Below are positions 53,394 through 59,885 of a DNA stretch of 64,000 nt, piece by piece. A model generated the notes under the pieces. That model did not search any database. It saw only the letters and a list, made by a program, of their open reading frames with translations, and had not been told where the DNA came from. Position 1 is the stretch's first letter. Every line of letters begins with the position of its first letter. Origin of the DNA: Nitrososphaerota archaeon (GTDB lineage: Archaea > Thermoproteota > Nitrososphaeria_A > Caldarchaeales > Calditenuaceae); the NCBI GenBank assembly GCA_038741355.1, contig JAVYLC010000002.1, positions 8,738 to 72,737 of the forward strand, given 5' to 3'. The position numbers and the translations under genes are program-made.

Positions 53394-56300
53394 TTGATGA
53401 ATTTGATTGATGGAAGATTTCTGAAGGAGCGAGGATACGATGTTTATAATGGAAACGAACTAGTAGTAAAAGGCGCACTAGAGGCCGGCATACCAATAGC
53501 ATCTGGCTATCCGGGTTCTCCAGTTGCTGAGTTTTTCACATTTACTGAGAAATACGCAGATTGGCTTGCAGAAAATGGATTTTATTGGGAAGCTGCAAAA
53601 AACGAGGCCGAAGGAGCAGGTAGGCTCAATGGCGCAAGAATTATCAACAAAGATGCAATGGTTGTCATGAAGAGTGTCGGATTAAACGTCGCTACTGACC
53701 CCTTGGAAATTTCTAATTATCAAGCAGCTGCAACTATTGGATGGGGTGGAGTTGTTGTAGTTGGGGATGATCCGCATGCTTCTAGCACACAGATTGCTTC
53801 CAGCTCAAGACTTCTGCTAAAGAAGCTTAGGATACCAATTTTAGAGCCTAGTACTCCGCAAGAAGTGAAAGATTACATTGGAGAAGCATTGGAATTATCA
53901 CGGTCATCGCAGTTAATAGCCGGATATATCATCCAATCATGGCAAGCTGATGGAATAGGGTCGGTGGAACTCTATAAAAACAAATATCCGACTAGAGTGA
54001 AAGAAAGGATTGATATAAGTAAAATAAATGTGGAGAAAGAAGTAAGCCTTCCTCCGGTTACTGCGGAGTTAGAAAAAGATATTGTTATAAGGAGGTTTCC
54101 GGCCGCGGTAAGTCATGCAAGAAGAAGGAATCTGAATCGAATACTTTATTCGGATGGTGGAAAAAGGAAGATTGGATTCGTTACCTCTGGTCTGGCTTAT
54201 AACTATCTCGAACAAGCATTGTATGAGTTGGGAATGCAGGGAAGACTTCCTATTCTAAAACTGGGACTGGTTTATCCACTTGATGAGAATTTAGTGAAAG
54301 ATTTTGCAAGACAAGTTGAAAACATTTATGTCGTAGAGGAAAAAGAGCCTTTCATAGAGTCTGAGATTTCTCTTATTCTGAGAGACGCTTACCAAAACAA
54401 AGAAATCGAATATGTTAACGTTTGGGGCAAAAGATTCCCTAACGACAGGGAGGGCTTCCCTGAACACGGCGGTCTGAGTCCCACTATTGTGATTAAGATA
54501 ATAGGTGAAGAGCTACTCAATGCTTTAGATGATTTGTCTTATGAAGAGAAAAGTAGAATTAATAAGGTCCTCGAACTAGTCGAGGACGCTAACAAATATT
54601 CCTTACAGCCTCCAAAAAGGATTCCTACCTATTGTGCAGGCTGCCCACACAGGGGGACTAGTAGTGTTCTTAAATATTTGAGGAGGTCTCCTGGAAATGA
54701 TTTCCTCACAGTACCAGACATCGGGTGCTATTCAATGTCGGCTTTTACTCCGTGGAAGGAGGCCCACGCTTTCAATGCAATGGGTCGTGCAGGAGCCTCT
54801 GCATATTCCATGGGGGTAGTAGAAAACAAGAAAGTTCTTCTCGTTGGTGATGGAACTTTCGTCCACGGCGGCTATGTGTCTGTACAGGAAGCTATAGACA
54901 AAAATCTAGACGCCATCATAGTTATACTTTATAATCACTATGTGGCCATGACCGGGCATCAAAAAGTTCAGATAAAGGATGCAAAAGATATAGAGGAAAA
55001 AGTAAAAGCGATGGCGAGAGGAAAGGATGTCTATGTAAGAATAATAGATCCAGATGATAGGAAAGGCTACATTGAAGAAATGAAAAAACTGATGAATAGA
55101 AAAGGTACAGCTGTACTGATCTCGGATAAGGAATGCGGTATAACTAGGGAAAGGAGAAGGAGGGCTGAGAGGGCGGGAAAACCTAAGACGGAATTCATAA
55201 ACATAACTAACGAAGTATGTGAGAACTGCAGGGAGTGCACCATGAACACAGGCTGCCCAGGGTTAACTCTTGTAAACACGCCGTATGGCGAAAAAGTTGC
55301 GATAGACATGTCAATATGCACAGAGGATGAGTACTGTGCGAAAATAGAAGCCTGCCCCTCATTCGAAAGAGTTAGGGTGCACTACGCAGGAGGGAAACCA
55401 AAGGAGAGATTGCTTGATTCAGAACTGGATGGTGTGCCAGAACCTGATAATAAGGTAGAGTTTAACGATACTTACTCTATTTACACCGCAGCTGTTGGCG
55501 GTATGGGTGGTGGGCTGCTCTCCGTGATTTTGGCTCGAGCTGGAGCGAAAAGCGGCTATAATATAGGTAGATGGATAGGACACGATAAAAAAGGATTAGC
55601 CATAAGAAATGGCGGTGTTTACAGTCATATAATATTTTCTAAAAACGATGCACAATTATCTCCTGTTATTGTAGCCGGCAAAGCTGATCTAATAATTGGT
55701 CTTGACAAGCTTGAAGGCTCAAAGGGGTTAAAGTATGCTAACGCTAGTACAAAATTTGTTTCAAATCAAACAGAGCTACCTACCATACCTATGCTCATAG
55801 GAGAGGAGGAATATCCACACGATATTGACGAAAAAATTAAAAATAGGTTGACATCATATAATAATTATGGGCTGCCGATTTCGGAGCTTGCAGAGTTTTA
55901 CTTAGGAAACAAACTATTTTCCAACATAGTCATGCTGGGAGTCTGCTATCAGCTCGGCCTATTACCATTGGACTCTAAAAATATAGAGGATGCGATAATT
56001 GAATCAGTCAAAGCAGAGCGGGAGAAAAATCTAAGGGCTTTCAAGTTTGGAAGGAAGCTTGTGTATGACAGTACTTTTTTGGATAAGCTAATAAACAATC
56101 CTCATTTCCTAAGAATATACCATGAACACATGTGGTTTTCAAGAAGATCTCTGGAAGAGGTACTCTATGAGAAGAAGGACTATCTGAAAGATTACTATTT
56201 GATAAAGTCTAGGGGGTTGAAAATTGCTAATATGTATGAAAAACTAATAAAAGATTTTAAGAATGATAAAAAGTTGGATGAAGATGCCTTGAAACATTTT

Positions 56301-57041
56301 GCTATAAGGGTTTATGACTTGATAAAATGGGGCGGCATAGACTATGCTAAAAAATATGTGGAGTTGGTCTCCAAGGTTTATTATAAGGATAAAGAGGAAA
56401 AAGGATTTGCGGCTACCAAAGCTGTTATAGAAAATTTATACAAGGTAATGGCTATAAAGGATGAGTTATGGGTTTCCGAGCTACTATTAAGCAGAGAGAA
56501 GCTGGAGAGAGACAAGATTAAGTACAATGTACATGAGGAGCGAGGTGATAGTATAGAGTATATTCATTTAACAAGGCCGCAGATAGTTATAAGTGTTGGG
56601 AAACCTTTGGGAAAAATCATAAAATTCTTGAAAAAGAACTTGCCAAATTTGGCAAACAAAAAGATTGAGCTAGACGTTGAAGATGGCATGCTCAAAGTCA
56701 AATTAGTTATGAATACCAAAAATTGGCAGCTCCGAATCATCAGGAGGATGAAGTTTCTCCGGAAATATTTGTTTAGACATAAGAAGGAAGAAGAATTCAG
56801 AGACTGGTATGTTGAAAGGGTCATAAGTTACTTCCTCGAAAATTCTGAACAAAATTATGAGCTTGCTGTAGAGTTTCTTAAGATGCCGCTTAGTTTTAAT
56901 GTTCCAGCACATGCTAAGGGCATTACTGGATTCAGGGAAGTTATATATCCTAAAATGGACTTAGCGAGAAAAACTTTTGAGAACCTAACTTCTACCTCGA
57001 ACCTTGTTTCCGAGTTAGAGCCTGTCGGCAAAAAGCAATGA
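53394..57041 (+). CDS. fused indolepyruvate:ferredoxin oxidoreductase-family protein (2-oxoacid:Fd oxidoreductase, bacterial long form)
   Basis: 1215 aa. N-terminal IorA signature GNELVVKGALEAG...GYPGSP. TPP/Fe-S region CAGCPHRG and CENCRECTMNTGCPG. IorB/POR-gamma-like AVGGMGGGLLS. ~350-aa K-rich C-terminal extension. Low GC. Confidence 0.8.
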   Translation: MMNLIDGRFLKERGYDVYNGNELVVKGALEAGIPIASGYPGSPVAEFFTFTEKYADWLAENGFYWEAAKNEAEGAGRLNGARIINKDAMVVMKSVGLNVATDPLEISNYQAAATIGWGGVVVVGDDPHASSTQIASSSRLLLKKLRIPILEPSTPQEVKDYIGEALELSRSSQLIAGYIIQSWQADGIGSVELYKNKYPTRVKERIDISKINVEKEVSLPPVTAELEKDIVIRRFPAAVSHARRRNLNRILYSDGGKRKIGFVTSGLAYNYLEQALYELGMQGRLPILKLGLVYPLDENLVKDFARQVENIYVVEEKEPFIESEISLILRDAYQNKEIEYVNVWGKRFPNDREGFPEHGGLSPTIVIKIIGEELLNALDDLSYEEKSRINKVLELVEDANKYSLQPPKRIPTYCAGCPHRGTSSVLKYLRRSPGNDFLTVPDIGCYSMSAFTPWKEAHAFNAMGRAGASAYSMGVVENKKVLLVGDGTFVHGGYVSVQEAIDKNLDAIIVILYNHYVAMTGHQKVQIKDAKDIEEKVKAMARGKDVYVRIIDPDDRKGYIEEMKKLMNRKGTAVLISDKECGITRERRRRAERAGKPKTEFINITNEVCENCRECTMNTGCPGLTLVNTPYGEKVAIDMSICTEDEYCAKIEACPSFERVRVHYAGGKPKERLLDSELDGVPEPDNKVEFNDTYSIYTAAVGGMGGGLLSVILARAGAKSGYNIGRWIGHDKKGLAIRNGGVYSHIIFSKNDAQLSPVIVAGKADLIIGLDKLEGSKGLKYANASTKFVSNQTELPTIPMLIGEEEYPHDIDEKIKNRLTSYNNYGLPISELAEFYLGNKLFSNIVMLGVCYQLGLLPLDSKNIEDAIIESVKAEREKNLRAFKFGRKLVYDSTFLDKLINNPHFLRIYHEHMWFSRRSLEEVLYEKKDYLKDYYLIKSRGLKIANMYEKLIKDFKNDKKLDEDALKHFAIRVYDLIKWGGIDYAKKYVELVSKVYYKDKEEKGFAATKAVIENLYKVMAIKDELWVSELLLSREKLERDKIKYNVHEERGDSIEYIHLTRPQIVISVGKPLGKIIKFLKKNLPNLANKKIELDVEDGMLKVKLVMNTKNWQLRIIRRMKFLRKYLFRHKKEEEFRDWYVERVISYFLENSEQNYELAVEFLKMPLSFNVPAHAKGITGFREVIYPKMDLARKTFENLTSTSNLVSELEPVGKKQ

Positions 57042-57165
57042 AGTGACAATTATCCTCTCCTCGCTAACTGAAAGATGGTAGACCTCTAGCAAGCCCAGTG
57101 CGCTAAACCAATTTTCTCAACTCTTTCACCACACATATTAACCCTCTTGGAATCGTTTGGGGTGG

Positions 57166-57193
57166 GGGATTGGCATCCCCCACCCGACAAGGC
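57166..57193. repeat. GC-rich perfect hairpin (11-bp stem, 4-nt loop)
   Basis: ggggtgggggat tggc atcccccacccg. Lies 125 bp downstream of the IOR stop, at the island boundary. Confidence 0.4.
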
Positions 57194-57364
57194 CGGGCTG
57201 CCGAGAAGTAGGGTGAGAAGATGTCCACATCTTCTTCCTAGAGAACTGAGGATAGAACTGTACTATGAGGTTGGAGGGCTGAGGAGGCAGGGACTATCAT
57301 ACTGAAGAATCATAGGCTCTGTGAGGGAGAGATATGGTGTTGTATTACAAAAATCCCACATTAG

Positions 57365-58237
57365 CTACTGGGTCAGAGGAATACACAGCCCATACAACTG
57401 CATAGAATACCTTCAATAAAGTTTCTAAAACCTTCTGAGGAGCCTGCGTATGTTGTAGGTGTAGTTGCTGGAGAAGGTTATGTCCTGCGGCGGCGACGGC
57501 TTCGAAAATCATACCACGAAGTGTATGTAGGGTTGAAAGTTAGGGATAGGGAGTTTGCTGAGGAGTTCTCAAGATGTCTTGCAGTAGTCTTGAAGAGAGA
57601 ACCGCCTAAACCTGCTGATCCTAGGTCGTCGGGAGGACGATTCGTCGTCGAACTAGAAAGTAAGGTCCTCTACGAGCTGCTGAAGAAGCCTTTAAGGCTG
57701 GAGAAGATCAAAAAGTTTATAGAACACTCTAACCGATGTAAATCGGCCTTCCTGAGAGGCTTCTTCGACAGCGAAGGAAGCGTAGATGAGGACGGAGAAG
57801 TAACAGTCTATAACACCGACTTAGCCCTGCTTAGATACGTCAAACAACTTCTCTCTTCTCTAGGGATAGAGACTACAGGACCACATCTCTACTCAAGGCG
57901 TGGAACGGCCTTCAGAGACCCGAGGACGGGAAAAACATATAGGACTAAGAAGGACGCATATGGGTTATATGTTACCGCTGGCTCTCGGCTGATGTTCTAC
58001 AATCGCGTAGGATTCACGGTGAGAAGAAAACAGCAGAGGCTGGAGAACTACCTCACAAGGACTGGACGGCTAAAACCCCCAGCCAACCCACCCCCCATCT
58101 CTTCCCAACCACATCACGATCACGATAATAATGTACAAGGTACGGGCCCGCTGGGACTTGAACCCAGGACCTTCGGCTCCGGAGGCCGACGTACCAGAGA
58201 TATTACATGCATAATATCTTCTCTGTGTCCATGCTGA
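57365..58237 (+). CDS. double-motif LAGLIDADG homing-endonuclease-like ORF; no canonical start codon upstream of motif 1 (possibly decayed)
   Basis: Motif 1 PAYVVGVVAGEGY at 57443-57481. Motif 2 SAFLRGFFDSEGS at ~57737-57775. Their ~99-aa spacing resembles I-DmoI-type enzymes. The frame is open from 57365, but the first ATG/GTG/TTG is the GTG at 57521. The 3' end runs antisense through the tRNA. Confidence 0.55.
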   Translation, partial: LLGQRNTQPIQLHRIPSIKFLKPSEEPAYVVGVVAGEGYVLRRRRLRKSYHEVYVGLKVRDREFAEEFSRCLAVVLKREPPKPADPRSSGGRFVVELESKVLYELLKKPLRLEKIKKFIEHSNRCKSAFLRGFFDSEGSVDEDGEVTVYNTDLALLRYVKQLLSSLGIETTGPHLYSRRGTAFRDPRTGKTYRTKKDAYGLYVTAGSRLMFYNRVGFTVRRKQQRLENYLTRTGRLKPPANPPPISSQPHHDHDNNVQGTGPLGLEPRTFGSGGRRTRDITCIISSLCPC

Positions 58238-58248
58238 GCTACGGGCCC
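58143..58248 (-). tRNA. tRNA-Arg (anticodon CCG) with a ~30-nt intron at a non-canonical position (D-arm/anticodon-stem junction)
   Basis: The minus-strand reading is GGGCCCG-UA-GCUC...[intron with palindrome AGAUAUUA-UGCAUG-UAAUAUCU]...UCGGC-CUCCGGA-GCCGA-AGGUC-CUGGG-UUCAAGU-CCCAG-CGGGCCC-G. It shows a perfect 7-bp acceptor stem, a 5-bp anticodon stem, U33, and a canonical T-arm. The D-stem closure is imperfect, so the exact intron boundaries are uncertain. Confidence 0.7.
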
Positions 58249-58289
58249 AACGAAAACAACAATTTCCCATATATATGTTTAAGAGGAAA

Positions 58290-58445
58290 ATAGGGGGAGA
58301 GTTTGGCTGGAGGCCCGTCATCTGACAACGTCTGGGAAGCCGGATGAAAACCGTGCATTGGCTGCGGAATCGCCGTAAAGCGTTCGACGCCCTATTGCCC
58401 GGCCTTCATCCGGTTTTTCCCCACTGTCAGGCCGGGCCTCCAGCT
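58290..58445. other. ~150-nt block of nested inverted repeats (candidate structured RNA or terminator region)
   Basis: Outer 12-bp pair gctggaggcccg / cgggcctccagc. Middle pair ctgaca / tgtcag. Inner 9-13-bp pair gaagccggatgaa / ttcatccggtttt. The block sits immediately upstream of the tRNA on the minus strand. Confidence 0.3.
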
Positions 58446-58657
58446 CTGACGTAATTCTTGATTTTCTTCAGCAGTTCTCGGGCTTCTCTGGCTTTAACGC
58501 TGTTCATCCTGTAGTAGCTGATTGCAATGGAATGAACAGCCTGTTTCAGTCGATGGTTGTATTTGCCGATGTTTGGTTTATAAAGTCCGACGTAGCACAA
58601 AATCCTCCTCAGCTTCGCCGTAAAGTTCACGTGTAGAAGAATGTCTGCGAAAGCCAC
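58427..58657 (-). CDS. hypothetical small basic protein (uncertain)
   Basis: 76-aa ORF. No motif recognised. The region is structure-rich and could be non-coding. Confidence 0.2.
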   Translation of the reverse strand: MAFADILLHVNFTAKLRRILCYVGLYKPNIGKYNHRLKQAVHSIAISYYRMNSVKAREARELLKKIKNYVRAGGPA

Positions 58658-58826
58658 CTTACCGTACAGACAGTCATCCGATAAGCCAAGAGGTTCGCAT
58701 AAAGGCCTGTATATGCTTATTGTGTTCGTCGCGATGTTTATTATCTGCCGTGCCAGCCTATATTTTTCTCTACGAACGGTGTTGATGGATTCCAGGATTC
58801 TCCCCGCTGTTTCATCATCTTGAGCA

Positions 58827-59066
58827 GTGCTTGTTTCGCATAGTACTTCACCATTATCTTCATCAGCTCTATTTGGTCAGTGGATACTTCGACGAAGATT
58901 CACTTATAAAGATTATGAAGAGCCTCCGTCTATCCCTTCAGGCGTTCAGCCACAGTATGACAGGGGACAGTCATTCTGTAGCGTGTGTCATGAAACATTC
59001 GAGAACAGGGATAGATGTCCCCATTGTAACAGAGTATTAAGAAAAAAGAAATACAAACAACCCTAA
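58827..59066 (+). CDS. hypothetical small zinc-ribbon protein (uncertain)
   Basis: C-terminal CSVCHETFENRDRCPHC (CxxC-x10-CxxC). An alternative overlapping frame 58831-59040 also exists. Confidence 0.25.
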   Translation: MLVSHSTSPLSSSALFGQWILRRRFTYKDYEEPPSIPSGVQPQYDRGQSFCSVCHETFENRDRCPHCNRVLRKKKYKQP

Positions 59067-59147
59067 CAGACCAAGATAATAGTCGATATTATCTTAGGCC
59101 AGCGCCCTATCCATTCTAGGCCACGGGCCCGCCAACCCCATCCTAAG

Positions 59148-59885
59148 CTATCCTTTTCTCAAATAGTTAATCATGATATCTGGATAATCTGTGACAATGA
59201 CGTCCGCTCCCATACCCATCAGCCTCTCGGCCTCCTCCACCTCGTTGACCGTCCATACGGCAACGGTAAGTAGCCTCTGATGGGCTCGATAGATAATCTC
59301 TTTACATACGCGGCCCTGGTAGAGCGCGAGCGCGGTAGCTCCACATTCTAAGGCCCAGTATACTGGTAGCTCCTTACTGACTTCCTCGACTTCGTTGAGC
59401 CACCCAACTATCAGGCTCCTCCCAACCCTAGGCTCGATAGAGTAAGTATTCTTGATGACTTGTGGGTGGAAGCTTGAGATCAAGACCCAGTCTAAGGCTC
59501 CGCATTCTTTGATGACTTTTAGGACTGCCTCCTCATCACCCGGCTCCTTCACCTCGACGTGTAGCACAACCCTCCCACCCGTCTCGGCCAACACATCCTC
59601 CAGCCTAGGGACAGGCTCACCCCTAAACTCCTCACCCTTCCATGAGCCTGCATCGAGCCTCCTTATCACGGGCCAGGTCAAGTCCCTAACCCTTCCGCCC
59701 CCATTCGTTGTTCTCTCTACCGTTTCGTCGTGCATCAAGACAACTATGCCATCCTTAGTGGTCCGCGCATCTACCTCGATGCCGTCGACTCCCAGCCTCA
59801 ATGCTTCCTTAACGGCCCTCAAGGTATTCTCGGGGAATCTGCCTGAGAATCCTCTATGCGCGGTTATGAGGGGCTTAAGGGGCAT
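59148..59885 (-). CDS. ugpQ: glycerophosphodiester phosphodiesterase
   Basis: AHRGFSGRFPENTLRA...EVDARTTKDGIVVLMHDETVERTT is the GDPD catalytic signature (H-R...E.D...HD). Confidence 0.85.
   Translation of the reverse strand: MPLKPLITAHRGFSGRFPENTLRAVKEALRLGVDGIEVDARTTKDGIVVLMHDETVERTTNGGGRVRDLTWPVIRRLDAGSWKGEEFRGEPVPRLEDVLAETGGRVVLHVEVKEPGDEEAVLKVIKECGALDWVLISSFHPQVIKNTYSIEPRVGRSLIVGWLNEVEEVSKELPVYWALECGATALALYQGRVCKEIIYRAHQRLLTVAVWTVNEVEEAERLMGMGADVIVTDYPDIMINYLRKG

Follow-up and report, generated by a model that had tools for sequence, protein, structure and literature searches.

How does a gene for a putative DNA-cutting enzyme of the LAGLIDADG class come to lie, seemingly without a start codon, across the antisense strand of an intron-bearing tRNA gene? 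The question is raised by a stretch of 64,000 nucleotides (hereafter the window) from a Nitrososphaerota archaeon of the Caldarchaeales (Calditenuaceae; assembly GCA_038741355.1, contig JAVYLC010000002.1, positions 8,738 to 72,737), in which an open reading frame (ORF) with two LAGLIDADG motifs converges on a tRNA-Arg gene and reads through it. Taken by itself the ORF is an ordinary homing-endonuclease pseudogene; its interest lies in the habit of the family to which it belongs and in the rearranged tRNA that it adjoins. The reading that we favor, with a probability of roughly 0.7, is that positions 57213-58142 represent a decayed cassette of about 1 kb, encoding a helix-turn-helix (HTH) domain fused to a LAGLIDADG core, of a kind that would have spread to tRNA 3' ends by break repair.

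The frame opens at 57365, directly after a TAG at 57362-57364, and remains open for 873 nt up to a TGA at 58235-58237, the first in-frame ATG, GTG or TTG being the GTG at 57521, which lies 3' of the first motif; translation of the frame thus confirms what an earlier note on this DNA, made from its letters alone, had described. The two motifs reported there as some 99 amino acids (aa) apart, VVGVVAGEGY from 57452 and LRGFFDSEGS from 57752, are spaced by 100 aa on one chain, the arrangement of a two-motif monomeric LAGLIDADG protein, and the assignment survives a formal test, since Pfam LAGLIDADG_3 matches the ORF with E 2.5e-16 and 60 bits, the cut-off being 22.5. The window copy keeps both acidic catalytic residues, the E of GEG in motif 1 and the E of SEG in motif 2; across the family alignment a D is nearly invariant in motif 1 and an E invariant in motif 2. 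The best PDB sequence matches of the window protein are I-Tsp061I and I-DmoI (E 0.0008-0.003), and the likeness to I-DmoI that had been proposed is seen again in a fold search, done not on the window protein but on an intact homologue that is 60% identical to it (P0003): its AlphaFold model (predicted local distance difference test, pLDDT, 83) consists of a three-helix N-terminal domain followed by a double alpha/beta LAGLIDADG core, and its top PDB match is I-DmoI (template-modeling, TM, score 0.75, E 8e-11, identity 22-23%), with WhiA also among the matches. NCBIfam yielded no dedicated model for the family, only intein-containing enzymes being matched, and no database record was found for the 238-aa ORF of the window. 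The features of the gene are as follows.

57213..57404, + strand: N-terminal HTH domain (MRRCPHLLPRELRIELYYEV...GIHSPYNCI), in the frame of 57213 with a GTG start, corresponding to residues 1-64 (tblastn, homologue alignment)
57303..57305, + strand: lesion 1, an in-frame TGA within the HTH domain (frame translation)
57402..57405, + strand: lesion 2, a 1-nt deletion (frameshift) between ...SPYNCI and RIPSIKFLKP (tblastn segments)
57404..58119, + strand: LAGLIDADG core (Pfam, family alignment, nucleotide similarity to other copies ending at 58096-58119)
57452-57481, + strand: motif 1
57752-57781, + strand: motif 2
58120..58237, + strand: unconserved read-through of the ORF into the tRNA antisense, ending at the TGA 58235-58237

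The long ORF seems startless because a TGA and a 1-nt deletion have split the HTH part from the core. The frame that begins with the GTG at 57213 translates as MRRCPHLLPRELRIELYYEVGGLRRQGLSY*RIIGSVRERYGVVLQKSHISYWVRGIHSPYNCI, and at the position of the TGA homologues carry AGT, AGC, GGT or CGG; further downstream, two tblastn segments overlap at about 57402-57405 in different frames, where the family consensus runs across the junction as SPYNGxRIPSI (homologue N-termini read MxxxYLPRELRIKLY). When the upstream HTH frame was joined to the frame of the 873-nt ORF and this repaired protein was used as a query, 642 proteins were matched, the best of them at 69% identity and 94% coverage, mostly under the names "LAGLIDADG family homing endonuclease" or "intein-encoded DNA endonuclease-like protein" and from Caldarchaeum, Aigarchaeota and Nitrososphaerota assemblies (Caldarchaeales and Nitrososphaerales). 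Since the HTH part is found upstream in another frame, with residues ~1-64 starting from the GTG at 57213, no non-canonical initiator is needed, and the one that the earlier note had envisaged is not supported. The gene has no uninterrupted frame from a start codon, and its sequence marks it as a pseudogene, derived by recent decay from a free-standing homing-endonuclease gene. This is the first explanation that the earlier note had offered, and the upstream HTH domain, the two lesions and an alignment of the repaired protein over more than 90% of its length to intact homologues bear it out.

That a LAGLIDADG gene should be physically associated with a tRNA had been thought unusual; for this family it turns out to be the rule. 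The C-terminal tails of homologues in the databases resemble antisense tRNA 3' ends (e.g., GPAGFEPAT, GGTRTHD), and for this reason 80 genomic loci were fetched (designated by L numbers below), many of them at contig ends and 71 of them assessable for tRNA. A detector of T-arm plus acceptor, whose sole detection in the 64-kb window is the tRNA-Arg, gave 62 hits in the 80 loci, 45 of them convergent with the gene and with the tRNA 3' end 20-200 nt past residue 285, an interval that makes up 1.6% of the search space (binomial P ~2e-66); the distance past residue 285 has a median of 75 nt and an interquartile range of 66-91. Nine further loci (L001, L006, L022, L026, L057, L060, L063, L071, L074) were added by ARAGORN run with introns, by Rfam and by inspection, bringing the convergent tRNAs to 54 of the 71 assessable loci, and Rfam confirmed 10 of the 10 convergent tRNAs visible to it among L001-L022. 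Other arrangements comprise a mere tRNA 3' remnant (L004, L053, perhaps L073) and a co-oriented tRNA (L014). More than 20 tRNA identities are flanked by family copies; about 60% of the flanked tRNAs are intronless, and the link is therefore to tRNA genes and not to introns. The right end of the gene at the tRNA 3' end, tail to tail, is accordingly the rule for the family, and as in the window, 13 of 45 tabulated copies reach their first stop only within the tRNA.

The family is also multi-copy, with 187 stretches confirmed by tblastn in genome representatives and from 1 to at least 17 copies per genome (at least 17 loci in the metagenome-assembled genome, or MAG, PSS.bin.6; 3-7 in several others). 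As to their state, 44 of the 80 copies look intact and 19 are frameshifted at differing positions. Their neighbors are housekeeping genes (HypF, ATP-binding-cassette transporters), and viral contigs gave one weak family match only. At L008 a second, partial LAGLIDADG copy (1879-2277) converges on a second tRNA. The presence of P0016 on 22 contigs was considered as a sign of recent transposition and rejected, the contigs representing one locus with assembly variants.

How precisely the family meets its tRNAs can be judged from the cassette borders, for which two further features of the window are needed.

57150..57212, + strand: 5' leader, including the G/C hairpin GGGGTGGGGGATTGGCATCCCCCACCC (~57159-57185), with similarity upstream of other copies
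58070..58142, + strand: 3' tail, containing a C-rich motif, CCCAGCCAACCCACCCCCC, and closing with A/T-rich sequence (...CACGATAATAATGTACAAGGTA) directly against the tRNA discriminator base

At the nucleotide level the window resembles other copies over 57210-58119, that is, the gene itself, the leader being more weakly similar from about 57160 (L003/L010 type) or from 57191-57210 (L175, L073, L004), and the left border of the window cassette falls somewhere between 57042 and ~57160, the neighboring IorA-like gene ending at 57041. The conserved unit measures ~1.0-1.2 kb, and its left end is a mosaic across the family, where two or more upstream modules alternate, each repeated in its own right. 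The right end is of a different precision. L175, L042 and L046 keep this tail until at most 6 nt remain before the tRNA, and the tRNAs are different ones; in particular, the window copy and its closest intact relative (P0001, at L175) share the end ...CACGAT(A/G)ATAATGTA.. to within 6 nt of two different tRNAs. At this same L175 (2012-2350), a tRNA 3' half stands right after the cassette and another tRNA follows 230 nt on. The cassettes of PSS.bin.6, mostly 76-86% identical in nucleotides to the reference copies over ~1.0 kb, all end in ...CTCAAAATAATAACTAAT, with 2-5 nt left before the discriminator in each case; the tRNAs that they meet are of 13 kinds (Pro-CGG, Pro-TGG, Thr-GGT, Ser-GCT, Ser-CGA, Ser-GGA, Asn, Met, Ile-GAT, Lys-TTT, Arg-GCG, Gly-CCC and Glu-TTC), and all 13 junctions, read in the orientation of the tRNA, run acceptor, discriminator, 2-5 variable bases, TTAGTTATTATTTTGAG... 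An identical element end is joined precisely to different targets, as is expected of mobile homing.

The relatedness of the copies points in the same direction. Within a Caldarchaeales genome, the nearest tRNA-flanked relative of a copy has 59-87% protein identity (mostly 65-87%), and the best match in another genome has 45-66%, the exception being a near-duplicate pair of MAGs (L042/L046, 91%); this best match from another genome flanks a different tRNA in 34 of 42 comparisons. Judged by these sequence identities, copies in the Caldarchaeales cluster by genome, not by tRNA.

The tRNA-Arg of the window is itself a remarkable structure, whose parts, together with what lies between them, are listed here.

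58143..58248, - strand: tRNA-Arg(CCG), chimeric (ARAGORN after intron removal, partial Rfam match, alignment to intronless relatives)
58249..59095, - strand: insert of 847 nt between fragment F and the present tRNA (comparison with the empty loci L176-L181)
59096..59130, - strand: orphan 5' tRNA fragment, F, the first 35 bases (positions 1-33) of the ancestral tRNA-Arg

Neither ARAGORN with default settings nor Rfam at the gathering threshold called a tRNA in the window; once 29-31 nt are removed from the D-arm, a tRNA-Arg(CCG) is obtained with an ARAGORN score of 120, and Rfam gives a partial tRNA match of 26.7 bits. Aligning the tRNA with the Arg(TCG) of L013, which lacks an intron, places the intron (~58192-58222) between positions 24/25; in the minimum-free-energy fold the intron forms a hairpin without a clear bulge-helix-bulge (BHB). 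The claim that the ORF reads antisense through an intron-bearing tRNA-Arg was therefore correct, the overlap (58143-58237) taking in 95 of the 106 tRNA bases. ARAGORN run with introns also called a tRNA-Leu with an 892-nt intron, a spurious product of joining the orphan 5' fragment to the 3' half of the tRNA-Arg, and it was this call that led to the discovery of the fragment.

The ancestral state of the locus is preserved in relatives. Next to the orthologues of the GDPD gene at 59148-59885 (-), which are 75-78% identical, six loci (L176-L181) carry an intact, intronless tRNA-Arg(CCG) some 17 nt after GDPD and no LAGLIDADG gene; this ancestral tRNA reads GGGCCCGTGGCCTAGCATGGATAGGGCGCCGGCCTCCGGAGCCGGA.GTC...CGGGCCCG. 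The orthologous tRNA-Arg site is thus polymorphic for the presence of the cassette, the comparison being between species (75-78% identity) and not within a population. In the window, fragment F starts 17 nt after GDPD, where the relatives carry the whole tRNA. The present tRNA-Arg has a 5' part (positions 1-33) like that of the Arg(TCG) of L013, whereas its 3' part, from the anticodon onward, is identical to the ancestral tRNA-Arg(CCG), a make-up that makes the window tRNA a chimera and F the displaced original 5' part; A43 of the tRNA matches the new T27. The 847-nt insert is flanked by two diverged tRNA 5' parts. Fragment F recurs with the same truncation point in L003, where 28 of 28 bases are identical and the flanks only ~72-75%, and it may be maintained by gene conversion or may be functional, e.g., as the half of a split tRNA. 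On the opposite side of the cassette lies a 1215-aa gene resembling indolepyruvate/2-oxoacid:ferredoxin oxidoreductase (IorA-like; 53394-57041, +), for which the search for an orthologue reached at most 55% identity in a metagenome scan and at most 59% in a protein search. Given a left flank without a usable orthologue and a right side whose genes have orthologues of 75-78% identity in conserved order, synteny breaks at the cassette/tRNA locus.

Several further observations concern the insert and its surroundings. Just upstream of the tRNA-Arg and co-oriented with it (58287-58314, -) stands a solo motif, CCTCCAGCCAAACTCTCCCCCTATTTTCC, that equals the 3'-terminal motif of LAGLIDADG cassettes and matches that of L004 at 26 of 28 positions. 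Its sequence suggests a second, almost wholly deleted cassette; a hidden Markov model search of the six-frame translation of 58250-59100 found no second LAGLIDADG remnant, leaving the 28-nt end motif only. Positions 58300-58445 form a near-perfect long hairpin of 145 nt (-85 kcal/mol, z-score -7.1) that belongs to no Rfam family and has no further copy in the window or the loci, and inside which an independent Logan contig of the same strain ends. The 3' fragment of an ORF with a zinc ribbon occupies 58899-59066 (+); this ORF, of ~165 aa when complete, has about that length in L002 (2201-2788, -) and L051 (2833-2991, -), where in both cases it converges on tRNA 3' ends (Ser-GCT, Ser-TGA) just upstream of a LAGLIDADG copy, and it often adjoins such a copy. 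Pfam gave nothing above threshold for the zinc-ribbon ORF or for the small neighboring ORFs. Right after F (59071-59095, -) comes a hairpin, AAGATAATATCGACTATTATCTTGG, resembling the tRNA intron AAGATATTATGCATGTAATATCTCTGG at 21 of ~29 positions, a likeness that could be due to chance among A/T-rich palindromes or to a shared origin of intron and element end. A further selfish element of the endonuclease type is met in the same neighborhood of the relative HR02, whose RtcB (L180 1294-4191) holds an intein (965 aa, Intein_splicing), compared with 498 aa for the RtcB of window-type relatives.

From the identity of the cassette, its decay and its habit of sitting at tRNA ends, we infer a mechanism in which a nuclease targets tRNA 3' ends. 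The enzyme would cut both strands at the 3' boundary of tRNA genes that lack a cassette, or just past it, and repair of the break from a copy elsewhere would install the cassette at the new tRNA, so that within a genome the cassette would pass from one tRNA gene to another and its copies would decay afterwards. Because the grouping of copies follows the genome rather than the tRNA, whatever determines targeting should be common to all tRNA genes: recognition would probably involve such shared features as a T-arm and acceptor placed at a constant distance, which the HTH domain may read. The T-loop box lies a fixed 13-16 bp from the tRNA 3' end, and one may speculate that the tethered N-terminal HTH reads this box and that the core cuts at a set distance from it, which would square such broad targeting with the high specificity usual for enzymes of this class. 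Breaks and ectopic repair between tRNA loci would likewise yield the orphan 5' fragment, the swapped 5' half and the new intron of the window, as well as the tRNA remnants at L004, L053 and L175; what is seen, nevertheless, is the co-occurrence of cassette and rearranged tRNA, from which causation does not follow. The broadest form of this proposal, namely that the family homes to tRNA 3' boundaries in general and that the resulting breaks drive tRNA disruption, orphan halves, chimeras and 24/25 introns, is put forward only tentatively, and we would bet against it rather than for it. Were it to hold, introns of the 24/25 type could, by analogy, shield the donor allele, an archaeal BHB-intron version of 'collaborative homing'.

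A number of points weigh against the spread of a tRNA-homing cassette. Some 12-15 loci have no tRNA adjoining the gene; the mosaic left border allows no single border to be set, so that insertion is judged at the right end only; and one Nitrososphaerales lineage keeps the tRNA-Cys association in 5 genomes. The clustering by genome could, moreover, have arisen from gene conversion between copies that are old and were inherited vertically, instead of from recent transposition. High sequence specificity is the norm for LAGLIDADG enzymes, and the targeting of many tRNAs calls for an unusual mode of recognition; no family member with a characterized cleavage activity or target site was found in the literature searched. 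Finally, the lesions are seen in one assembly, no independent contig spanning them having been found, and the Logan contig from this strain breaks off at ~58393, short of the gene.

Among the alternatives, the one that fares best, though it is unlikely, holds that the gene is the passenger cargo of a tRNA-integrating element of the integrase type (pNOB8-/SSV-like). In its favor, the 847-nt insert is bracketed by a direct repeat made up of the orphan 5' fragment and the reconstituted tRNA, tRNA fragments stand beside other copies (L004, L053, L175), and an origin of this kind is the published interpretation of a comparable insertion, termed a-b (PMC3293823). The expected companions of such an element are nevertheless missing: no integrase was found in the window between 57042 and 59147, nor any integrase Pfam family among the neighbors of P0001, P0005 and P0016 or within 5 kb of the copies inspected. 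The repeat fails as well, 14-mers of the tRNA 3' part being absent from the 2.5 kb upstream of 36 out of 37 cassettes (the exception is L029), the conserved unit is merely ~1.0-1.2 kb, and the end of the cassette abuts the end of the tRNA instead of a crossover point inside it.

We regard it as improbable that the family is a domesticated, WhiA-like host factor that binds DNA at tRNA genes rather than a selfish nuclease. WhiA is indeed among the fold matches, and both the architecture and the tRNA linkage are kept across two orders; against this stand the conservation of the catalytic acidic residues of both motifs, the degraded state of a quarter of the copies, the swing in copy number between genomes and the empty orthologous tRNA-Arg site of the relatives. 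To a similar degree we doubt that the lesions are assembly or sequencing errors in a truly intact gene. The source is a metagenome-assembled genome and the Logan contig stops short of the gene, which would allow for such errors, yet the two lesions are independent, differ in kind and are 100 nt apart, the TGA differs at two or more bases from the homologous codons, and decay is common among the copies of the family.

There is very little to be said for a functional gene expressed through a non-canonical start, programmed frameshifting or stop read-through, because, even though the 873-nt frame stays open and the 19 frame-split relatives among the 80 could in principle hint at recoding, the HTH domain carries a stop as well as a frameshift, the shifts of other copies (at residues ~66, 96, 131, 168, 190 and 209) share no conserved recoding site, and 44 of the 80 copies are plain uninterrupted ORFs. 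Equally hard to credit are two other origins, a mobile BHB intron of which this would be the remnant, as the earlier note had also proposed, and an rRNA-intron endonuclease gene transposed to this place: the closest solved structures do belong to the rRNA-intron enzymes I-DmoI and I-Tsp061I and the adjoining tRNA does bear an intron, but the cassette stands beyond the tRNA, up against its 3' end, the identity to I-DmoI is low, most flanked tRNAs are intronless, the family has an extra HTH domain and stands free in housekeeping neighborhoods, and Rfam found no rRNA either in the 64-kb window, as had been noted for the locus, or near the 20 related copies of the L001-L022 set.

A decayed member of a family that probably spreads to tRNA 3' ends thus accounts best for the locus, and its relevance extends beyond this one pseudogene. 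A free-standing HTH-LAGLIDADG gene is found at the exact 3' end of at least 13 tRNAs in one genome, and in two archaeal orders. The origin of split and fragmented archaeal tRNA genes and of non-canonical introns is a long-standing question, to which the window adds a candidate DNA-cutting enzyme adjoining a freshly rearranged tRNA in a setting where relatives show the intact ancestral state, thereby rendering the question testable; the family may be a marker of tRNA-gene rearrangements and possibly their cause. A LAGLIDADG scaffold that reads a structural class of targets, and not one sequence, would also interest nuclease engineers. The proteins themselves are already present in databases under generic annotations, and an ORF of Caldiarchaeum subterraneum described as a putative recombinase is the only likely earlier sighting of the family. 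We found no description of a LAGLIDADG family flanking tRNAs in the literature searched, a search that was incomplete and does not prove absence, and the precise, general association with tRNA 3' ends and the HTH fusion appear to be undescribed.

Among known systems, the closest in form are the archaeal rRNA-intron LAGLIDADG endonucleases I-DmoI, I-Tsp061I, I-PorI and I-ApeI, with which the family shares the monomeric arrangement of motifs ~100 aa apart, the pseudo-dimeric alpha-beta-beta-alpha-beta-beta-alpha fold (as judged from P0003) and the metal ligands, Asp in the first motif and Glu in the second. The window gene, however, lies outside any rRNA or tRNA intron, the location by which the I-DmoI/I-PorI/I-ApeI class is recognized; the family is free-standing, multi-copy and placed at tRNA 3' ends instead of being intron-encoded, carries an additional N-terminal HTH of ~60 aa, and shows no more than 22-23% identity to I-DmoI (P0003). 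WhiA, a bacterial transcription factor of LAGLIDADG fold, likewise combines this scaffold with an HTH, but it has lost the catalytic residues, has its HTH at the C-terminus and is single-copy and essential, whereas the family keeps the acidic residues, has an N-terminal HTH, and is multi-copy and decaying.

In behavior, the nearest parallels are T4 SegB, in a tRNA gene cluster, and F-CphI/mobE, which are reportedly free-standing phage homing endonucleases engaged in collaborative or intronless homing. Their genes lie beside the target and spread by break repair with co-conversion of the flanks, as is proposed for the present family, and an intron in a nearby target can give immunity to the donor; these are, however, phage enzymes of the GIY-YIG and HNH types with one target each, compared with a LAGLIDADG enzyme of cellular chromosomes and many tRNA genes. 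The use of tRNA genes as safe, conserved landmarks, with insertion at fixed distances, is familiar from the integrative elements SSV and pNOB8 and from the retrotransposons Ty3 and, in Dictyostelium, TRE. Such elements employ integrases or reverse transcriptases (in eukaryotes also factors of RNA polymerase III), none of which accompanies the cassette, and of the hallmarks of SSV/pNOB8-type elements the LAGLIDADG cassette has neither the integrase gene nor the attachment-site (att)-bearing tRNA direct repeat.

The most instructive comparison is with C. subterraneum, from the same clade as the host of the window, in which a 5' fragment of tRNA-Thr(GGU) is associated with a 1,868-bp "insertion sequence" built from region a, 545 bp long and repeated, and from ORF b, of 813 bp, which has seven paralogues; the tRNA-Thr beside it has a new 5' part interrupted at 24/25 by an intron (Sugahara et al. 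2012, PMC3293823). In that work ORF b was classed as related to DNA binding or recombination (a putative DNA recombinase) by a support vector machine predictor only, and an origin from a pNOB8-type plasmid was proposed for the a-b insertion (PMC3293823). The window repeats the orphan 5' fragment (F, 59096-59130) and the reconstituted tRNA with its 24/25 intron; and ORF b, at ~271 aa, is multi-copy and stands next to tRNAs like the LAGLIDADG family. The orientation differs, in that b is co-oriented and upstream of the tRNA, whereas the gene of the window, like that of most loci, converges on the tRNA 3' end. From its length of 271 codons, the clade in which it occurs, the number of its copies and its tRNA surroundings, ORF b is probably a member of the LAGLIDADG family, and region a, which lies upstream of b, is probably the zinc-ribbon region.

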